Source: Eledone cirrhosa | Lineage: Eukaryota | NCBI GenBank assembly: GCA_964016885.1 | Contig: OZ024743.1 | Location: forward strand, 332,196,001 to 332,260,000 | DNA length: 64,000 nt | Direction of reading: 5' to 3' | In this document: positions 2,871-18,491 of the stretch, one piece after another | How the letters are laid out: each line of letters starts with the position of its first letter | Position numbering within the stretch: the first letter of the stretch is position 1 | The notes under the pieces: generated by a model | Databases searched by the model: none | What the model was told of the DNA's origin: nothing | The model's input: the letters and a program-made list of their open reading frames with translations, nothing else | Translations under genes and position numbers: made by a program

Positions 2871-2896
2871 ATCAAAGTTCAGTTTAAGTCATTTAT

Positions 2897-2945
2897 CTGC
2901 TTACAATTGTTTCCTCCAAACCGAGGTTTGGATTCTTCGGAGCAA
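2897..2945 (-). ncRNA. Hammerhead-like motif (minimal type I, core CCGAAGA), probably in a PLE remnant spanning ~2876-3420
   Basis: Minus strand: TGCT-CCGAAGA-A-TCCAAACC-TC-GGTTTGGA-G-GAAA-CAATTG-TA-AGCA. Stems I and II and a palindromic stem III are present. Confidence 0.55.
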
Positions 2946-3741
2946 CTATTTACTGATCTATAACATACTTGACCTCCTTTTCAACCCAAGAGACACATAA
3001 AACATATGCGCATATTGATCAACAGTGGGGTGACATTCATCAAATGGTATAGCATGGCAATTTACATATAAAGGTTACAGGATAAAAATAAAAATAAAAT
3101 AAAAACAAGGATGAAAATAAAGATAAACATGAAGCGTTGGCAGTCTATGAAGATAAAGCAAGAGGAGAGTTTAGAGTAGTCAGTGTATGAAACAGTCTCA
3201 CGTGTAGCATGCACGCGTGTCTTATTTATACATGATTAGAGTGCGTCAGAATGATATTTGCAGGGTCAGGCAGTTGAGGCAGGCAATCGATCTTATTATG
3301 TGGGCTGGATTATTAAGTCATTTATTCTCATACATCTGTATGATATATAGTCTCGGATGCAGGGAAACACCAAAATATCAAAAACTTTCCACATACTATA
3401 AACCTTATTGTAACGTAAGCATATATATATATATATACATACATACAAATATATTATATATATATAGCAAAGGTAAAACTAAATATACAAAGCTCAAAGG
3501 AAAGTATAGAATTATATATGATAGTATGTAATTGACACGTCTTTTCAGAATTAGCTCAATCTGTTTATATATTATATTGGTTTGAAGAGAAAGTCTATGA
3601 TGGAGAAGTGCAAAAATATACATATATATCATGTGTATGTATAGATATTGATTATACGTTTATTGGATGTACAACTCTCTTGAAACATGTGCAAGGAATT
3701 AAAGATGATTTAAAGCTAATTTTTCCATTTATATATTTGAT

Positions 3742-6116: not shown

Positions 6117-8229
6117 TCATCATCATCATCATCATCGTTTAACGTCCATTTTCCACGCTAGCATGGGTCTGGACGGGAATTGTCCCACTTGAGGCAAGAT
6201 TGGCTGTCTTGCTCAGGACTGTCTGGCGGGTTTTCTACGGCTGGATGCCCTTCCTAACACCAACCACGTTTACAGTATGGACTGGGAGGTTTTTACCGTG
6301 TTACCTAGACGGCCACATTACTGTGTGGACTGTGTGTTTTATTGTCATGACACCTACACGTCTGGCGGGTTTTCTACGGCTGGGTGCCCTTTCCAACACC
6401 AACCACGTTTACAGTGTGTACTGGGATGTTTTTACCGTGTTACCTACACGGCCACATTACAGCGTGGACTGTGTTTTTTTTGTCGTGACACCTACACGAC
6501 CTCATTTGTTTCAGACTGGATGTTGTGGTACCAACATAACTTCACATTTAAGGGGGTGGTGTGGATGGGGTGAGGGGAGTGCGACGGGGGTGTATTTTGT
6601 TAGAGGTGTCTACTGACTGTAGGTTTCGCTTTGTACTTAGGCAAGGCGGGTCTTCTGTATAACTGTGTAGCGCCAAAGATCTCGGTCCAGTGACATTGTC
6701 TTGGAGAGGTGTAAGTGTGTGAGGTCGGAATTTATCAAGTCGTCCCAGGTTTTTCTGGGTCTGCCTACTCCGTGGCTACCGTCTATTTTTATCGCCCTGC
6801 ACTTTTTTATACAGCTGTCGTCTTTCATGCGCATCACGTGACCGTACCAACGTAGTCTTCTCTCGAGTAAACAACATCTGATCCCTCTTATTCCTAATTT
6901 CTCCCTTAGTTCGTTTATGTTTTGCCGTTCACGTATATTACTATTACACATCCAGCGAAGCATGCAAGCTTCGTTTCTCTCCAGTCTGCGTATATCCTCC
7001 GCACACAATGCCCAGGTCTCACTTCCATGTAACATTGATGTTCGTATGCATGCATCATACAGCCTGCCTTTCATTTTTAGAGAGAACCCTTTCGCGGCCA
7101 ATAGTGGTATAAGCTCTCTGAACTTTTTCCATCCCGTTCTGCCTCTAGCTACTGTACTTTCAGAGCACCCTCCCCCACTGCTGATTTTGTCACCCAGGTA
7201 ATGGAAGCTGTCCACTATTTCTATAGAACCATCTGTGCAATGGAATGAGCTAGTATTCTGTGGGCACTTGCTGCTACTTATTGCACCAGAGCACCGGCCA
7301 CATATAAAATCTATATTCTTAGTTTGCTTACCTGTGATCCCACTACATCTTTTATGCACCCATACTTTGCATTTGGGACATAAAATGGAGTTTCTGCCTA
7401 CACCTTTCCTACACACTGAGCATGGCCATTTCCCAGATGGGACTGGTGCCCTATTTTCCTTCCTACAAACTAGAACTTTAGTCTTAGACAAGTTAACTTT
7501 AAGGCCTTTTGATTCTAGGCCATGCTTCCATGTTTGGAATTTCTTCTCTAGTTCCGCCATTGATTCAGCTATTAGCGTTAGATCATCTGCATATAGGAGT
7601 TCCCATGGGCAGCCGGTCTTGAACTCCTCTGTTATAGCCTGAAGGGAAATAATAAATAATAGGGGGGTAAGGACGGAGCTCTGATAAACACCAACTTTTA
7701 CGCTAAACTCTTCACTATATTCGTTGTTAATTCTAACCTTGCTGACTATTTCTTTATACATGGCTTGTAGAGCTCTCACAAGCCATTCATCAACACCTAG
7801 TTTTCTAAGGGCCCACCAGATAATTGAGCGGGGTACTCTGTCAAAGACTTTCTCCAAGTCAACAAAGGCTAAGTATAGGGGTTTACTTTTAGCTAGGTAC
7901 TTCTCCTGTAGTTGTCGTACAATGAAGAGAGCGTCTGTTGTACTTTTACCTGACACAAACCCGAATTGCATTTCGTCTAGATCAATTCGCTCTCTGATTA
8001 GTTGCGCTATTACTTTTTCTGTGACCTTCATGACCTGGTCAATTAATTTCATGCCTCTATAGTTTCCCCTATCTAGGGCATCACCTTTACCCTTGTAGCA
8101 GTTAATGATAATGCTGCTGCGCCAGTCCTTCGGAATGACCCCATTCTGTATGACTTGGTTTACTATCCGAGTGACCATAGTGTGTCCCACCGTTCCAGAT
8201 GCTTTCAGCATTTCAGCAACTATTTCACA
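6117..8229 (-). mobile_element. RTE-clade LINE, family B, 5'-truncated, open RT ORF to the stop at 6637
   Basis: ORF 6637-8322 (the N-terminal ~31 aa come from the TA array): NYRG, QFGF, DLEKVFD, YADD, C4HC3 finger, YLG, RWYGHV. 3' UTR 6117-6636 with (GAT)n tail. Confidence 0.95.
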
Positions 8230-8462: not shown

Positions 8463-10572
8463 GTGAAAAGATGTGTGGAGATGATCATTGGGAGTGGGGT
8501 GGAGTTCAGCGATGTCGACACAGACGAACTGGGCCTCCTACTTAGACTTACCTACGACACTGACTACCTAGACAGCCATGACCTTAGACGTTTCTGCCCT
8601 AGTAGACCTATAAGAGGTAGACCCCTCACCATAACCTCAATGGCAAAAATGACTCCCATGGGAAGGTGGATTGGGTGGACCAAAGCTATACGGAACCCCA
8701 AAACAATGATCAGGTAAGAAAAATGGTCGCACATGCAATAGGGGCTAGTATCAAAACTACCCTAAAGGGCCACATATTTAAGTTCAACGAGAAGATCTAC
8801 ACCCAAAATGAGGGAGCAGCCATCGGCGTCAGCATAGCTGGTGATGTTACCAACCTTTTCATGGTATGGTGGGAAAGGAGACTTAAAGATCTCCTTAATG
8901 AGAGCTCCATAGACCTCATCATGTACTCTCGTTGTGTAGACGATATCAATATAGTTATAAGAACACCTCCACTAGAGAGCACTAACAAGTTTGATTTAGA
9001 ACGTAGCACGATGGAAAGCATCCAGCAGATAGCTAATTCCATACACCAGAGTATAACTGTAACTATCGACTTCCCTTCCAAACACCCTAACAATAGACTA
9101 CCTGTATTAGACACAGAACTCTGGATTAACACTATAGACGAGAGAGCCCAATTTCTCCACTCACACTATGCTAAACCCATGGCCTCCAAATACCTGATAC
9201 TCAAAAACTCAGCAATGTCCAGTAGTGCTAAGTTTAATATTCTGATCGCAGATTTGGTACGAGTGATGAAGAATGTGTCCCGCATGTGCGACCCAACAGA
9301 AATGGAAAGACACATCCAACACTTCATCAACCGCATGCAGTTCTCTGGCTACAACCAAAGAGACAGAGTCAGAGTATACGAAGGAGCCATGGAGAAGTAT
9401 AAGACCCTCATAGAACTGGACATGAAAGGAATTTGCCCATTATACAGGAGCAAATCATGGAATAGCTTAGATAGGGCTAGACATAAGATAGGGAAAGCCA
9501 CCTCATGGTACGACAACCAGAGATACCAGAGTGTCATGTTTGTGGACGCTACCCCTGGAGGGAAATTAGCTAACCAGTGTAGAAAGGCCCTGAGAACGAC
9601 CCACTTAAAAATAAAGGTGGTAGAAAAGCCAGGAACCACCATAAAATCCCTGATCAGCAAAACCTATCCTTTTAAGAAAACCCACTGTACCAATAGGAAA
9701 TGTATCATATGTAAGGTGAACCCCGGATAAACTGTAAAACTAGAAACGTAGTCTATAGCATAAGATGTACAGAGGGTACTTGCAGAAAGATGACAACAAC
9801 ATACATAGGTGAGACAGCTCGTAGCATAGGTGAAAGGATAGACCAACACTGTGGGGAACTAATAAGGACGAAAAAACGGGTCAGTACTATACGAACATGC
9901 TAGACAACAACATGACGGTAACATAGACAACATAGAAATTAGAATAATATCTAAACATAGAAATGACCCAGCAGATAGGCAAATCAGAGAGGCCAGTGAA
10001 ATAGAAATTAAAAGACCAAGACTAAACAGAAAGAATGAATGGAATAGCAACAACACCAAAACAAACAACACTCACCTAAGAGAAGTATAAATAAGTAAAT
10101 AAAATAAAATAAATAAATAAATACATACACAAGCACAATAACAACAAGCACATAAACACACATTAGTCACCCATCACACAGCAAACAAAACATTATACAC
10201 ACACGCAAACGCATGTGCAAAGAAGACAAAATAAAATAAACAAACAAGCAAATAAATAAATAAATATATAGACAGACTGAATAAAAATGGCGTAGACATA
10301 CAATACAACAGGAAGAAAATATAGCACCACTGACGATGTTGCAGATGTGCAACGAAAGATTTATGATAAACTATATATATGTGTTTGTGTCTATATTGTA
10401 TCTGTATTATTTTTGACCGTCGGTCAGTCAATGGCAACATTGAGGACCGAGTAAGTCAGATTACCGATATAAAAGACACAGAAGCGAGAAGCGAAAACCA
10501 CCCAAACAGTGAGTGTGTTCTGTTATTAATTCTGGCAATATTACACAAATATGACCCTCCCCAAGTATAACA

Positions 10573-10573
<1 letters not shown>
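8463..10573 (+). mobile_element. Penelope-like element, Naiad-like, 5'-truncated and frameshifted (RT + GIY-YIG endonuclease)
   Basis: QNEGAAIG, YSRCVDD, DFPSKHPNNRLPVLD, YAKPMAS, SGY, CTNRKCIIC. After a shift at ~9727: NCKTRNVVY..C..C..YIGETAR, then after a further shift SVLYEH..H, RQIREA, LNRKNEW; stop near 10090. The long insert before RT motif 4 (8463-8700) resembles Naiad. Flanked by (TA)n. Confidence 0.85.
10318..10398 (+). ncRNA. Hammerhead ribozyme motif in the 3' UTR of the Naiad-like PLE
   Basis: CTGACGA (10330) T GTTGCA-GATG-TGCAAC GAAA (10354) G-ATTTATGATAAA-C TA. Stem I is imperfect (AATATAG..CAC / GTG..CTATATT). Confidence 0.65.
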
Positions 10574-10603
<30 letters not shown>

Positions 10604-10610
10604 TACACAC

Positions 10611-11380
10611 AGGGATTTTTTGAAGGCTTTTTGAATTAACCTTTAATTGATTAGTTTCTTCCAACTTAGTAGGGATTATCAAAACTTCGTAAATTTTCTG
10701 AAATTTTTTAACTTGATCTCTGGGGTAGAAAATTTTTTTCTTTCGAAAAAAAATTTTTTCTCTCTAAGGAATTTTTTAGGAAACTTTATATTTTTATTTT
10801 TTTATTATTTTTTAATTTTTTTAGTCTCTTAATCTCTTCTGATTTGTTAGGTTTATTGGGGCTTATAAGCTTTATGCACTTATTGAGGGATTTTTTAAGG
10901 TGCTTCTACGAGGTCCCAAGTCCTTCACTTTTAATGCGTAAATTATAAATTATCTAATTTTTAACCTTCAATCCCTGACTCTTAGGCCCTTTTCAAATTC
11001 TCTTAACTCCCCATAACCCATCCCTTTTACAACTCCGACAACTAATATAAAAGAGCCCCCTTAGAATATAGACCCCAAATATACAAGCGGAGCTGCTGAT
11101 GTATACCACAATTTCAAACTGCTAATCTTGAGTGAAACGTTGATGTAAATAATGAACTTACAATCACTTGTTATATGCCTTGAAAAGTCCCACCATATGG
11201 TCGGACGAAACGGCTGTCGGCAATAAACTTGTTGTAATGTCATAATAGTTCCTTTGTTCTTTTTCATTAATATTTCTGCTCTGCTTATACGCATAGAGCT
11301 TAACTAGCTACCATCGCATATTTGGTAGGTCAGGCGTGATCATCGCGATTCACATACGACCTACCATACATCTTGCTTAT
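10611..11380 (+). repeat. 5' pseudo-LTR
   Basis: Begins AGGGATTTTTTGAAGG and ends CATCTTGCTTAT; highly similar to 15992-16761 with small indels. Confidence 0.9.
11171..11226 (+). ncRNA. Minimal type I hammerhead ribozyme, U3-A8 core variant (5' pLTR)
   Basis: TTAT-A-TGCC TTGAAAA GTCC-CACCATATGGTC-GGAC GAAA C-GGCT-G TC GGCA-ATAA; predicted cleavage after GUC at 11218. Confidence 0.75.
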
Positions 11381-11432
11381 TTAGCTCCCTCCGGTAGAGC
11401 TTAACCTTCACTGAAAAACACACCGCCCTGGG

Positions 11433-14040
11433 GTGGCTTTTCAATACACCGACAGTATGCTGACAAAGGACCATCTTCCGTTATCACTTAAGAATATACC
11501 CATACCACCAAGGGGTACTTATGAAAAGCAGCTTATAGCCAGCGTTAATTCGTTTGTAAGGAGAATAAGATGGCGCACATTCCACTTCGATAGGCGCCGT
11601 AGCGCCCCACTAGAGAGTCCATCGAATAATAAGTATGGATTTAGGACATTTAGGAGCCCGCCCCATAACCCTCTACTCGATAAATTTGAGAGTGATCTAT
11701 TGTCTCTTGTCCGGTCTATTAGGTATAAAAGGAAAAACGGTAAGCGTAGCGGCTTCCAAACTAAGTTAGAATCACTAGTTAAATCTTTTAAGGACAGAAA
11801 TTGTATACTCATACCCTCGGACAAGACTAAGAATATGTACAACCTGAGTTATGAAGAATACCGCGGATTCATATACAATGAGCTACATAAAAACTATAAA
11901 AAAACCACTGTAGCCAACCTAAATGAGATTAACAGGGAGGCTAAAGTGATAGTAACGAAGCTAGGATTAGAGAAATGCACACAACCTTACACCCCCCGAT
12001 AACCAAGGTTCACATTGAAAGATCATAAGGAGGACTTTGCAAGTAGCCCCTCTGTCAGGCTCATTAGCCCCTCTAAATCTGACATAGGGATTATAAGTAA
12101 AAAAATACTAGATGAAGTCATACCGAAAGTTAAGGACAGGATTAGCCTGGACCTATGGGGAAACACTGCAGAAGTGATAAAGTGGTTCTCAAGCATTAGC
12201 AACCACAAATCACTACGCTTCATCCAGTTCGATATAGACTCCTACTATACGTCTATATCCCACATACTACTGAATAAGGCGCTCATGATGGCAACGCGGA
12301 CGGGTGGACTCACTAGATCCCAGACTGACATAGTCCTTGCCGCTCGTAAAACAATTATCACATTTGAGAATGAATTGTGGACGCGCAAGAACACTCGTAA
12401 TAACTTCGACATCACTATGGGATCTAGTGACTCAGCACAGGTGACAGACCTCGTCGGATTGTACTTGCTCAAGGACCTCAACGAGCAGTTCCCACACCTC
12501 AGAGGTGGGCTATACCGTGACGACGCATTGCTTACTGTGGAGTTTAAACGACACAACCTAGAAAGAACTAGAAAGGACCTATATAAATTCTTCAAGAATT
12601 TTAACCTATCAATAACTATGGATAGAAATAGTAAGGTAGTCAACTTTCTAGATGCCACACTAGACCTAGATAAGTTAGAATATGCACCGTACCATAAACC
12701 TAACGAAAGGCTGACATACGTCAATGCCAACTCCAACCACCCAGGCTCAGTCCTCAAAGCAATAGTTAAGGGAGTATCTAGTAGGATTAGCGGACTATCT
12801 AGCAGCGTGACCGCATTTAAGGCGAACGCGGAGTATTACAATAAGGCGCTAACTGGGTCAAAGCACAAAGATAAACTCCATTATGTTGAGACAGGCGGCA
12901 CCACCCCACCACCCCAACCCAGCACTGTAATCACGCATATGTCCATGGGAGATGGAGGGAGAGCTAGAAAGACGAATAGGGACAATAGGAATTTAGCTAA
13001 GAACAACACTCGCAATGCATACACGGATAGGGCCCACGCACCTGGAAAGCGCTACGCCGCCCCAAGCAAGTCCAACAGTGAAAACGGGGGCCAGAGGCCT
13101 AGGAGTTTTGAAACCAACACACATACCACTGGGAGCCCAGCAACCACACCTGGTAGAACCCGTAATAATATAGATGAAGGGAGGGTAAGCAGCATAGGGG
13201 ATAAGAAACGCAGTGGAAGGAATAGAAGACATGATAGTACCTTCTTTAACCCGCCCTTCAGCTCTAATATTACTACAGACCTCCCCAAATTTTTTTCTCT
13301 TTAATAGATAGGAACTTCCCCCCAGGTAGTAGGTACGGTAGTGTCATCAATAAGAATACTATCAAACTATCGTACTCAACAACCCCTAATCTGGCCTCAC
13401 ACCTAGCTCATACCAATAAGAGTAAGATTAAAGAGGGACTTAAGGCCATCCGAAATAGGAACCATGCCAGTACACACGACAACACGGGACCAACCCACTG
13501 AATGAAAGACCCAGGGGGATAACAGGCAATAGAACCGGTCCCACTAGGCAGCCCCGCGGCCGCTTGGAGGGACATGCACCCCTGATTGAGGAGCATGACC
13601 CTATTAGAAAGTGTAATTGCAGACGGAAGGACAAATGCCCACTAGCTGGACACTGCCTTATTAGCAACGTAGTATATGCTTGTAACGTAACCACAGACAC
13701 GTATACTAAGACGTATGTGGGGTCAACCGCTAACCAGTTCAAAACGAGTTTCAACACCCACCAGCATAGCTTCCGATATGAGAAGCTTAAAAATACCACG
13801 TCGTTAGCGGGGCACATACATAACTTAAAACAAACAAAAACCCCCTACACACTAAGCTGGAGATGCCTTACTAAAGCTCCTCCATATAGCTCGTTGAGCA
13901 GGTTTTGTAGCCTGTGCCTAACTGAATCTCATGCCATAGTATTCTCAGGACTTAACTTGCTCAACAGGAGGTCAGAAATCTTCTCGTCCTGCCCCCATAC
14001 TATACTTAGCTCTTTCTTTTTCTTCAGACCAGACACATAG
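11433..14040 (+). pseudogene. PLE polyprotein (RT + Cys-rich linker + GIY-YIG), disrupted
   Basis: SLKNIPIP, RRIRWR, FDIDSYYTSI, MGSSDSA, LYRDDA, NFLD, YHKPN..SNHP, FFNPP, KLSYS, CNCRRKDKCPLAGHC, VVY..YVG, CSLC, LLNRRSEIFSSCPH. In-frame TAA at 12000, frameshift at ~13300, further disruption at ~13500. Confidence 0.9.
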
Positions 14041-15341
14041 CCCTGACCCCACCCTGTCCCGCACATGGCTGCCCCGCTGGCGAATAGGGTGCTCTTGAGT
14101 AACCCCGGCCGCATTGATGCCTCGGCTCCCCGATTGCCGATGGGGACTCTGGTGAGGAACAGTCGACCCTGTGTCCCACTTGCCAACTTGGGATTGGTGG
14201 AAGCATTGTTGTTGGGCACCCTGGGGGCAGCTGATGCCTGCGGTGTGGGACATTGTGAGTGCCTGAACCCATGTTGACTAATCGGGGGAGGTGCCGTCGG
14301 AGATGTATGTCAACAAATTCGGGAACTTGCCCAAGGAAACAGTAACAGAACACCCAATATGGTGGCCGCTCCCTGCCTATAACCAATCAACCCCCCCCCC
14401 CATAATAAACCCCCCTCCCCCAAATAGATGCCCCTCCCCATTCTCCCCCATTCACTTCCTTTGAGTTAGTTCTTCTTTATTATTATTGGTTCTTTTTGAG
14501 TTAATGGGCTTGGAGAGTTGACTCCCTTGATGTCTGACCACTCGATAAGTTAGGGGTTGTGCCCCTTGAGCAGGGGTGAGTCTAGCTGGTCTACCTGCTG
14601 TCTGCTACTACCCGAGACTGGACACGGTCATAGCCACAGGCCAGCGCGTGCGCGATAGCATGGAATATATATTTTCTGCTAGTCACCTCGTGTAATATGA
14701 TACCCCAAGATTCCATGCATGAGATTCACCGAAGCATGCGCAGTCTTAACCGGGAGATGACATGCGAACTTGAAAATACCACAAGAGAGACCCTTTGGAT
14801 AGCGTAGACGCCGGACCATACCCGCAAATATATACCCTGATCTGTCTTGAATATTCATGGCTGACGGAATATGGATAACACGACCACCATCTTAGCTGGA
14901 ACCGACCCCTACAACAAACAAAGAGGGGACAGCCCTTCGCATTTGACCAGTCGCGTGTGTGCTTGGAGTTCGTGAGAGGAGGTGATATTAGCGAGAGACA
15001 CAATATACCACCCCAGTCAAATCCACACTGGTTTTTTTACCAATATAGCATGTAAACCAATATATCCTCTGCAGCGAGACCTTGGATTTAGAACCGGCAG
15101 GCTGATCTATCGCAAAAGCGTGCAACCCCCGAAACTAAAAGATCGAACGGACCACACCCAGCAACCACTAGCTATTTGATCCACAGGTACATTTCCCAGA
15201 GAGTCCACACAGCTGATAGTGAATCCCAGTTGATTCGTGAACTCTGAACTTTTAAACAAGACCAACTGTGCCTGGAGCTATGCAGATGACTACATACGCA
15301 CAATGGATATCGCACCCACAAGGTCACCTGTATTGTTCATC

Positions 15342-15593
15342 TTGCTGTATGTGTGTAAAGTATCCATGCGTGGGATATCCCTGAGTACATTTTCTTGACT
15401 ATCAATTGTTTATTGATTATTTGTTAATTAGGCAGGAATATACCATTATGTCTTTGTTAATCCTATGTGTTGCTGTATGTGTGTAAAGTATCCGAGCGCG
15501 GGTTATCCCTGAGCTAATTTTGCTTGACTGTTAATTGTTTATTGATTATTTGTTAATTAGGCAGGAATATATTATTATGTCTTTGTTAATCCT
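15342..15593 (+). repeat. 128-bp tandem duplication in the PLE 3' region
   Basis: TTGCTGTATGTGTGTAAAGTATCC starts at 15342 and 15470. Confidence 0.85.
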
Positions 15594-15991
15594 GTATTAA
15601 TAATTTTATAATAATTTTTTGATAGTACATTATTAGATTACTGAAGCTACCTTATACCTTCTTAAAAATACATTTTATAATTATTGTCTTTTTGCTTATG
15701 TATTTTCTTACTTATCATTTTCTTTAATCTTGCCCAACTTGATAAGCTCTTTGAATTGCTCCCTAATTAAATTACTTAAATTACTTAAATTATTTTATCT
15801 ATTATACCTAAGTTGTATCTGTTGAAGCAGCCCTTTGAAAATTCCTCTAATATCCCAAATCCCGTAATTTTTAACTTCTAATTTATAATTTTCCTCAATT
15901 CGTTTATATATATCCTTAAAGGCTCTCTAAAATTTTAATTCTTCGAAGGGTCTCTCGGGAGAGGTGCTTATTAAAAATATTAAAGGGGCTG

Positions 15992-16761
15992 AGGGATTTT
16001 TTGAAGGCTTTTTGAATTAACCTTTAATTGATTAGTTTCTTTCAACTTAGTAGGGATTATCAAAACTTCGTAAATTTTCTGAAATTTTTTAACGTGATCT
16101 CTGGGGAAGAAAATTTTTTTCTTTCAAAAAAAATTTTTTTCTCTCGAAGTAATTTTTTAGGAAACTTTATATTTTTTTAGGAAACTTTATATTTTTATTT
16201 TTTTATTTATTTATTTATTTTTTTAGTCTCTTAATCTCTTCTGGTTTGTTAGGTTTATTGGGACTTATAAGCTTTATGCACTTATGGAGGGATTTTTTAA
16301 GGTGCTTCTACGAGGTCCCAAGTCCTTTACTTTTAATGCGTAAATTATAAATTATCTCATTTTTAACCTTCAATCAATGACTCTTAACTCCCCATAACCC
16401 ATCCCTTTTACAACTCCGACAACTAACATAAAAGAGCCCCCTTAGAATATAGACGCCAAATATACAAGCGGAGCTGCTGATGTATACCACAATTTCAAAC
16501 TGCTAATCTTGAGTGAAACGTTGATGTAAATAATGAACTTACAATCACATGTTATATGCCTTGAAAAGTCCCACCATATGGTCGGACGAAACGGCTGTCG
16601 GCAATAAACTTGTTGTAATGTCATAATAGTTCCTTTGTTCTTTTTCATTAATATTTCTGCTCTGCTTATACGCATAGAGCTTAACTAGCTACCGTCGCAT
16701 ATTTGGTAGGTCAGGCGTGATCATCGCGATTCACATACGACCTACCATACATCTTGCTTAT
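15992..16761 (+). repeat. 3' pseudo-LTR
   Basis: Direct copy of 10611-11380; ends in a (TA)n array. Confidence 0.9.
16552..16607 (+). ncRNA. Hammerhead ribozyme, U3-A8 variant (3' pLTR)
   Basis: Identical to 11171-11226; predicted cleavage after 16599. Confidence 0.75.
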
Positions 16762-18098: not shown

Positions 18099-18491
18099 CG
18101 GCTGGAGAGAAATGAGGCAAGCATGCTCCGTTGGATGTGCAGTGTAAATGTGCGTGAACGACCCAGCATAAATGTGTTGAGAGAGAAACTGTGTCTGAGA
18201 GGGATAGAATGTAGTGTACGGGAGAGGAGACTGAGGTGGTATGGACATGTGATGCGCATGGAGGATGACCGATGGGTGAAGAAGTGCCAGGAATTGCCAG
18301 TTGAGGGAAGACGTGGTAGAGGTAGACCACGAAAAACATGGGTGGAGGTGGTGAGAACAGACCTCAGATCATTGAAGCTCACGGTGGAGATGACGAGGGA
18401 CCGTGACGAGTGGAGAGATGCTGTGCTGAATAAGACCCGTCCCACCCTTGCAAGCAGGGAAAAGCGGACGTAAAATGATGATGATGATGAT
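18099..18491 (+). mobile_element. RTE LINE 3' fragment, family C
   Basis: [14 protein letters not shown]...RLRWYGHV...GRPRKTW, ending in a (GAT)n tail with almost no 3' UTR. Confidence 0.9.

Follow-up and report, generated by a model that had tools for sequence, protein, structure and literature searches.

How Penelope-like elements (PLEs), which among retroelements are the nearest relatives of telomerase, select the site at which reverse transcription begins, and what purpose their hammerhead ribozymes serve, are the wider questions raised by a locus of Eledone cirrhosa in which two direct repeats each carry a hammerhead-like motif with a variant core. The locus lies in a stretch of 64,000 nt that was analysed as a whole (the window; contig OZ024743.1, positions 332,196,001 to 332,260,000), and all coordinates given below are window positions on the + strand.

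The element and the hammerhead motif of its pseudo-LTRs

Judged by its motifs and element structure, the element is assigned to the Hydra clade of PLEs. Its 5' pseudo-LTR (pLTR; 10611-11380), an incomplete upstream unit with (TA)n as its insertion site, and its 3' pLTR (15992-16761), which terminates at +162 from the predicted ribozyme cut with (TA)n beyond, are direct repeats of ca. 770 nt with 92.5% identity that share an exact match of 144 nt (11169-11312 and 16550-16693). Between them lie an ORF (11457-14040) for a Hydra-type reverse transcriptase (RT) with a C-terminal GIY-YIG domain, broken in this copy by a stop at 12000-12002 and by frameshifts near 13290 and 13458, and a long 3' UTR of about 2 kb (14041-15991) with an internal 125-nt duplication (15342-15464 and 15470-15593). 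The 863-aa RT/GIY-YIG frame is unbroken at locus L084, which together with L072 represents the young families with intact ORFs in this genome. The ORFs carry the RT motifs RWR and SDKT, with DKT replacing DKG, as well as the putative endonuclease motifs CNCRRKDKC (a CxCx5C linker), VVY...YVG and CSLC...E...N...CPH (CxxC and CxH around E and N), which are a reading of motifs, the searches of the ORF against Pfam and PDB sequences having rendered no relevant match. RW(K/R), DKT, the linker, the CxxC/CxH arrangement, (TA)n targets and a hammerhead near the 3' end are also described for the Hydra clade of C-terminal EN+ PLEs by Craig et al. 2021 (PMC8557442), and the pLTRs, tail, 5' truncations, inversions and (TA)n insertion found here are traits of that clade. 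On the other hand, the unit of 5.4 kb (family A spans 5.2-5.9 kb; family D has 4.2 kb) exceeds the descriptive norm of under 3 kb given there for Hydra elements, the extra length consisting of the long 3' UTR and low-complexity inserts, and the tail of 107 nt exceeds the 30-40 bp given for PLEs. An RT tree of the families of this genome alone left their branching order unresolved.

As the initial annotation had claimed, identical 56-nt motifs lie in the two pLTRs, at 11171-11226 and 16552-16607, and every part named for them is present in the sequence. They comprise stem I (TTAT-A-TGCC/GGCA-ATAA), the core TTGAAAA (11180-11186), stem II (11187-11206; GTCC/GGAC) followed by GAAA, helix III (11210-11217; ACGGCTGT) and GTC, with predicted cuts after C17, at 11218 and 16599, 5381 nt apart. 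The motif is that of a minimal type I hammerhead, with U4 G5 A6, A9, G12 A13 A14, A15.1-U16.1 and H17 in place and a Watson-Crick pair, U3-A8, at positions 3 and 8. Two parts have to be read somewhat differently than at first: the CGGCTG of stem III is indeed self-complementary, and the full helix is a longer 8-mer, ACGGCUGU; the palindromic sequence of loop II is present, and is better regarded as a continuation of stem II (a C.C mismatch, ACC/GGT and a 4-nt loop). The 3' arm of stem I is overlapped by AATAAA (11222-11227), a putative poly(A) signal that is absent from sister family D; it was rejected as the template's 3' end, copies stopping 46 or 153 nt downstream of it and continuing into (TA)n instead of poly(A).

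Among Rfam families, RF00163 (Hammerhead_1) matches 11100-11460 best, over 11175-11224, with 20.1 bits (E 0.024), short of the gathering score of 34 bits; in a scan of 8 kb, which was dominated by TA repeats, the same match had an E of 0.53. Since the consensus of the Rfam model shows C3-G8, and a stem II shorter than the one here, the low score weakens membership of that Rfam family and not the hammerhead reading. No CTGANGA occurs on the + strand of the element, so that CUGANGA searches would overlook this ribozyme, as had been anticipated, and it also falls under the Rfam cut-off. In the genome, reversed-pattern controls rendered 0 matches, against 800-1024 real ones, and the folding energy (-13.3, shuffles -10.3 +/- 2.5) is unremarkable by itself. 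We consider it very likely that the fold in both pLTRs is genuinely that of a minimal type I hammerhead and that its U3-A8 pair is compensatory.

Copy ends, twin hairpins and the template

In 97 out of 100 genomic copies the 3' end falls at one of two places past the predicted cut, namely at +52 to +55 (58 copies) or at +162 to +165 (39 copies). The first corresponds to a loose TA end at 11273 (+55; 16654 in the 3' pLTR) and the second to 11380 (+162, and up to +165 with TA microhomology), the two bounding the 107-nt tail. Beside the first lies hairpin 1 (11278-11299; 16659-16680 in the 3' pLTR), a candidate RT docking site formed by GCTC, an upper stem-loop, a 2-nt bulge and GAGC, and beside the second lies hairpin 2 (11384-11400), which exists only where the pLTR continues into the 5' UTR and is lacking in the 3' pLTR. 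Within the element of the window, a descriptor of the hairpin finds three sites, 11278, 11384 and 16659, and no others, 0.21 matches per element being expected by chance. Throughout six Hydra families of the genome, 225 of 229 TA-flanked ends are followed 0-9 nt further 3' by a GCTC hairpin (152/156 in family A, 21/21 in B, 5/5 in C, 13/13 in D, 2/2 in E and 32/32 in H). An alignment of 17 hairpin sequences has 99.1% of its cells paired, against 17-41% in slid controls; the four GCTC/GAGC pairs are invariant in it, and three upper-stem pairs change on both sides. In 16 loci of family H a hammerhead descriptor found no hammerhead of the family's own, and both hairpins are kept, which makes the hairpin independent of a canonical hammerhead.

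Read by eye, the same hairpin is visible in published coral and sea-cucumber Hydra consensi: Hydra-2_Amil and Hydra-2_Ajap have it behind the hammerhead, Hydra-1_Ajap at its 5' end. A description of it was not found in the text of the freely accessible papers searched, and the main text of Craig et al. 2021, whose consensi contain the twin hairpins, has 0 matches to 'hairpin' or 'stem-loop'. In the Anolis Poseidon PLE (Frangieh et al. 2024, PMC11167929), for which internal initiation in vitro at two tail-bounding sites and protein-assisted hammerhead cleavage are reported, the two start sites are likewise downstream of the hammerhead and bound an optional tail, the targets are also AT-rich and initiation needs RNA 3' of the start site; there, however, initiation occurs in an AC-rich stem-loop inside the ORF, whereas the ends found here are 5' of repeated bulged hairpins of the 5' UTR. 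The position and covariation of the GCUC...GAGC hairpins suggest that they probably set the start of reverse transcription, and a covarying hairpin of 17-22 nt located by 225 of 229 copy ends represents a small, direct target for in vitro tests.

The copies read through the predicted cut site and end 55 or about 162 nt past it. None of 100 copies ends at the cut, only 1 of 85 starts there, with no pile-up of 5' ends, and 1003 matches downstream of the cut compare with 1024 spanning it. Three runs of contigs from one sample behave like genomic DNA and so carry no information on expression, RNA ends or introns. The excised linear RNA of 5381 nt that the initial annotation had put forward therefore cannot be the usual template, and it does not appear as an insertion end product either; moreover, such a doubly cut RNA would carry the hairpins at its 5' end and yield inserts of 55 or 162 nt starting at the cut, as seen once in those 85 copies. 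It follows that the cut is resealed, is jumped across or does not occur in the template. In family A, 8 of 12 pLTR pairs terminate at +156 to +165 behind a complete unit (three of these eight may be one segmental duplication), and since hairpin 2 is found only before the ORF, such ends call for a circle, a jump or a tandem; this asymmetry makes the long-proposed circular template a testable requirement. The two pLTRs of one element are close sisters in 4 of 6 pairs (1-3 differences per 270 nt, family medians 14-26), with 0 differences in 1333 nt for L072, while the other two pairs, of the L086/L087 tandem, differ at 9-10 sites, some of them common to other copies. At the cut site neither a joining scar nor a recombination step was found: none of 169 copies has an indel at the junction, and linkage is undiminished, the mean r2 being 0.26 within the upstream side and likewise across the junction.

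These observations, that is, the fold, the core swap, the two fixed ends with a hairpin beside each, and the read-through of the cut site in inserts, are best explained, at about an even chance for the explanation as a whole, by U3-A8 hammerheads in both pLTRs, a slow cut by helix-III dimers and an RT start beside conserved hairpins. The two hammerheads of one transcript, acting as a helix-III-swapped dimer, would cleave slowly after GUC and release a unit of 5381 nt. The RT would bind the GCUC...GAGC hairpin 3' of its start site, so that the hairpin itself would not be copied, with the UAU just 5' of it aligned with nicked (TA)n DNA, and would copy back to the cut site and then across it into the 3' end of the unit, the passage being allowed by circularisation of the unit (or made by a precise jump from end to end). 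The outcome would be pLTR-ORF-pLTR inserts, tandems and an optional 107-nt tail. That a cut and resealed unit is the main template we hold slightly short of even; a cut-ligate-copy cycle via circular RNA has also been proposed for metazoan PLEs (PMC4209133).

It could also be the case, with a distinctly lower probability, that, with the same hammerhead and hairpins, tandem or pLTR-ended loci provide the template as read-through RNA that is left uncut, and that the ribozyme serves only outside the insertion path, to trim co-transcripts, to free a 5' end for translation or in RNA turnover. For Poseidon, PMC11167929 gives unprocessed RNA as the main substrate, with no RNA-seq reads ending at the cut site, and hammerhead mutants without effect on in vitro insertion, which speaks against the explanation preferred above. 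Multi-ORF tandems are present in the genome (C2:219.15-219.16 Mb, L098, L069 and L070), and tandem loci could provide uncut templates; however, tandems are a minority among RT matches, most two-pLTR elements end at +162, which would require a hairpin 2 behind the whole unit, and in families A-E the hammerhead keeps a fixed distance of 45-59 nt to the hairpin 1 that follows it.

The U3-A8 core in the family and its relatives

Among 800 genomic pattern matches of the window element's family, U3 and A8 are found in 794 (five deviate at position 3 and one at position 8) and C3-G8 in none. The sister families have C3-G8 at the homologous site, and this, together with the family-wide U3-A8, indicates a compensatory swap, as had been proposed. 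In 13 homologous motifs of families A-F, whose alignment has 94.4% of cells paired (21-45% in slid controls), pair 3-8 is C-G in 10 and U-A in 3, and the closing pair of stem I is U-A in 10 and C-G in 3; each change is a single event in a single lineage, so that the count of covariations is small. The core columns are otherwise invariant, except for position 4, which is C in families D and F. With the family order open in the RT tree, a derived U3-A8 rests on the C3-G8 of the sister families and of all 26 Hydra rows in File S2 of PMC8557442. No U3-G8 intermediate was seen, nor any family with 76% to about 90% RT identity, three decayed loci at 81-91% belonging to family A.

It is improbable that the motif is a decayed, inactive hammerhead carried as a passenger of a young family. 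The copies are indeed young (1-3% divergence), and near-fixation therefore says little on selection, and the Rfam score is below threshold, but the double change restores a pair, with all other core positions intact, and subfamily changes spare core and stems: in 169 copies the frequent substitutions are confined to N7 (0.23 per site) and loop II (0.17), compared with 0.010 in the core and 0.011 in stem I, so that TTGAAAA and the stems are conserved as the initial annotation required. Moreover, the swap recurs in a second, unrelated PLE family of this genome (6,483 matches) and in Schistosoma, and U3-A8 is reported to be active in vitro (cited in PMC3088659).

The U3-A8 core cannot be regarded as a novelty, since Cervera and de la Pena 2014 (PMC4209133) reported it in Schistosoma PLE hammerheads, with about 1,300 matches to a dedicated descriptor, and Perreault et al. 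2011 (PMC3088659) reported the natural covariation from C3-G8 to U3-A8, along with a U4C variant and palindromic stem III in repeat-type motifs, variants which that report, as far as its relevant sections go, ties to neither a PLE clade nor copy ends. As in Schistosoma mansoni Cercyon and other metazoan PLE hammerheads of PMC4209133, there is one type I motif per pLTR; unlike Cercyon, the host element here is of the Hydra clade and the variant is homogeneous, and, unlike for the elements described there, sister families with C3-G8 and with U4C stand in the same genome for direct comparison. What is new is only the occurrence of U3-A8 in Hydra elements and the natural series of C3-G8, U3-A8 and U4C at one homologous site, which constitutes ready material for rescue experiments.

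Proposed pairing of the two ribozymes

The unstable monomer helix III and self-complementarity of dimeric minimal PLE hammerheads are both found here: the 8-mer has a self-duplex energy of -9.7 kcal/mol, the monomer fold with a 2-bp helix III has a probability of 0.005, and an intact helix III was counted by eye in 85 of the first 100 matches. The helix-III-swapped dimer is predicted at -37.1 kcal/mol; the cofold of lowest energy (-38.4) is a duplex that swaps stem II and lacks hammerhead junctions, which speaks against the dimer reading. Minimal PLE hammerheads cleave weakly even in dimer form; the hammerhead of this element probably cleaves as a dimer under some condition. The proposal that the two ribozymes pair through their palindromes is supported for helix III and not for loop II, where ATAT occurs in only 97 of 169 copies (ATGG 35, ATGT 23) and the competing duplex lacks hammerhead junctions.

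Taken jointly, as a combined reading that we hold somewhat below even, the GCUC...GAGC hairpin, which would be shared by Hydra-clade PLEs from coral and sea-cucumber genomes to the present one, would dock a telomerase-like RT just 3' of its start site, and its duplication would give rise to the tail and to both 3' ends; copies of full length that carry the long end would come from a hammerhead-cut unit resealed into a circle, hairpin 2 being only in the 5' UTR, and the weakened cores (U3-A8, U4C) would be offset by a perfect 8-bp dimer helix III. Pairing through loop II and helix III at once, with the linear 5381-nt RNA as the transposition RNA, is very unlikely, for although the window copy has both palindromes and a stable self-duplex is predicted for stem II with its ATAT loop (-28.0; two hairpins, -16.2), loop II is non-palindromic in most sister families, and helices II and III stack coaxially (PMC4209133), so that swapping both would, we infer, need a closed ring of 28 bp. 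The short palindromic helix III, and the dimer model with it, are shared with the metazoan PLE hammerheads of that report.

Hammerhead motifs and their host element

The identical 56-nt motifs that the initial annotation placed at 11171 and 16552 are both present, one in each of two direct repeats (pseudo-LTRs, pLTRs; 10611-11380 and 15992-16761; 92.5% identity) that bracket a broken RT-endonuclease ORF, the whole element being set in (TA)n. The ORF motifs (RWR, DKT, the CxCx5C linker, and CxxC/CxH around the endonuclease E and N) agree with the description of the Hydra clade in section 11 of PMC8557442; the window copy has one stop and two frameshifts, and unbroken ORFs are found in other copies. 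A search of the genome with the RT rendered family A, that of the window element, at 94-96%, and sister families B (about 75%), C and E (70%) and D (68%); family H (47% RT identity) came from a separate search, and a pLTR end is the sole known part of family F. Family D is very young, with 832-aa open frames and identical pLTRs.

The motif parses as a type I hammerhead with a bulged A in stem I, a core reading U3 U4 G5 A6 A7 A8 A9 plus G12 A13 A14, a stem II (GTCC/GGAC) lengthened by ACC/GGT, a self-complementary 8-nt helix III (ACGGCUGU), and predicted cut positions (C17) at 11218 and 16599. Since the + strand of the element holds no CTGANGA and the best Rfam match for the region, Hammerhead_1, scores 20.1 bits against a cut-off of 34, standard screens would miss the hammerhead, as had been claimed of CUGANGA-type searches. 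Sequence comparison gives good support to the reading as a ribozyme.

Other elements lie close by. A further PLE-like element with RT and GIY-YIG (8621-10575, +) lies just upstream and terminates in the same TA tract. At about 10331-10360 it carries CTGACGA, a 6-bp stem II and GAAA, which have no fitting stem III and stem I next to them, and this region is possibly a rearranged hammerhead. Directly after a long TA tract, 18100-18473 (+) holds a retrotransposon frame fragment that we take to be RTE-like. Elements of the kinds described here share TA microsatellites with at least five more families that have canonical minimal hammerheads (L052, L064, L093, L094, L091, L125, L014 and other loci).

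The U3-A8 core and its precedents

A genome pattern search with positions 3, 4, 7 and 8 free, in which copies too decayed for exact flanks are not counted, rendered 800 places, five deviating from U3, one from A8 and none with C3-G8. In 169 distinct copies from the loci examined, a non-random set with some chosen by likeness to the window and six for core variants, frequent substitutions inside the motif are confined to N7 and loop II. The homologous site ahead of the ORF reads CUGANGA in families B, C and E, and CCGANGA in D and F. Among 13 representative motifs, hand-chosen from 62 variants, pair 3-8 is C-G in ten and U-A in three, and the stem I closing pair is U-A in ten and C-G in three; these changes are single events on one lineage, yet the right events. 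Both the 800 places and the C3-G8 of the sister families support the compensatory change that had been proposed, and U3-A8 is probably derived, because C3-G8 is found in all 26 rows of the published Hydra table (PMC8557442).

The U3-A8 core is not new. It occurs in Schistosoma Cercyon PLE hammerheads, about 1,300 of which Cervera and de la Pena retrieved by a dedicated descriptor (PMC4209133), and its natural covariation has been reported, with in vitro activity cited (Perreault et al., PMC3088659). Published work (PMC4209133) likewise already contains both the dimer model and the cycle of cutting, ligation and copying.

A second family of the genome has the same core on a different scaffold (L079, - strand, near 7685; L192-L215), with 6,483 exact pattern matches, UUGAAAA in the first 100 of them listed, and frequent short inverted pairs; a GIY-YIG frame with a Cx4CxxC linker lies upstream at two loci, and this endonuclease-frame motif suggests a Neptune-like family. 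Families D and F (L072, L074, L075, L077, L256, L257; L120) combine a U4C core (CCGANGA) with a helix III that is a perfect 8-nt palindrome, and one D-like copy is inside the window (2893-2949, - strand).

Helix III and the loop II palindrome

Helix III is unbroken in 85 of the first 100 matches listed and self-complementary in every sister family. Folding gave the monomer hammerhead a probability of 0.005, and the dimer with swapped helix III -37.1 kcal/mol. The pairing through the loop II palindrome that the initial annotation envisaged is not supported: the palindrome is present in 97 of the 169 copies (subfamilies without it have ATGG, 35, or ATGT, 23) and in about half of the first 100 matches listed, and in cofolding it shifts the preference to a stem-II duplex (-38.4) that lacks catalytic junctions. 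Helix III would gain no length from a swapped helix II. Lineages with a non-canonical core (A, D, F) have a perfect 8-nt helix III (-6.4 to -11.1), whereas in those with a canonical core (B, C, E) it has 7 nt and is mismatched at the centre (-1.6 to -2.3), an association that, with three related lineages against three, is a hint only.

Copy ends, twin hairpins and the template

The ends were recorded in 100 distinct copies (104 rows, four of them duplicates) selected solely by a motif lying immediately 3' of the cut, from 85 loci that cover most of the first 100 matches listed. Their 3' ends lie at +52 to +55 from the cut in 58 copies, at +162 to +165 in 39 and elsewhere in 3. The PLE of Frangieh et al. 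(PMC11167929) similarly has two ends bounding a tail, which were traced to internal RT initiation; there, RNA 3' of the RT start was required, and hammerhead cleavage was protein-assisted and dispensable in vitro.

The part that merits experiment is a pair of hairpins adjoining these ends, at 11278-11299 (3' of the first end) and 11384-11400 (3' of the second), each running from GCUC through a variable upper stem-loop and a 2-nt 3' bulge to GAGC. Of 229 TA-flanked ends counted across families A, B, C, D, E and H, 225 have such a hairpin 0-9 nt to their 3' side; microhomology with TA blurs the end positions, and many of the loci had been chosen around pLTRs. Within the window element the descriptor matches only at 11278, 11384 and 16659 (0.21 expected), and in 17 aligned hairpins the lower four pairs are invariant and three upper pairs are altered on both sides. 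By eye, the hairpin lies 3' of the hammerhead in the published consensi Hydra-2_Amil (coral) and Hydra-2_Ajap (sea cucumber), at the start of Hydra-1_Ajap, and in a looser form in Hydra-1_Crog (copepod), and is not seen in Hydra-1_Amil and Hydra-1_Obim. The main text of PMC8557442 mentions no hairpin or stem-loop, and a literature search over openly readable running text rendered no description. Family H (L222:1590-1875), a high-copy, young Hydra family, has both hairpins and two ends; no hammerhead in it passes the descriptor, and an upstream CAGAAGA...GAAA stretch may be a deviant core.

Hairpin 1 is within the long pLTRs, so that one uncut unit can template the +55 copies. Hairpin 2 occurs before the ORF and nowhere else; nevertheless, in family A the long site is where 8 of 12 pLTR pairs (three of the eight may stem from one duplication) terminate, with a whole unit in front of it. 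Such copies require a circular template, a jump from one end to the other, or the transcript of a tandem. A resealed unit as template seems to us nearly an even proposition. After the double cut of a swapped dimer, the 5' end of the unit would stay paired with the unit's 3' stem I arm, an arrangement that would promote closure. The pLTRs within one element are sisters of each other and tandem units are near-identical (99.9% over 4299 nt in L069), which fits a single circular template and also homogeneous tandems. Such tandems exist in the genome, and the 169 copies show neither a junction scar nor a linkage break at the cut-site junction. An uncut template is a route that we consider possible and less probable than the resealed unit. 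The usual template is not a doubly cut linear RNA, since copy ends avoid the cut (no 3' end in 100 copies, and one of the 85 5' ends inside their locus) and matches downstream of it (1003) show no excess over those spanning it (1024); the excised unit-length RNA that had been proposed can thus matter only if rejoined.

Head-to-tail tandems of whole units are found at C2:219.148-219.166 Mb (L086, L087) and at L069, L070, L098 and L155. At L086/L087 the inner two pLTRs are identical, and the outer ones differ from them at 9-10 sites in 270 nt.
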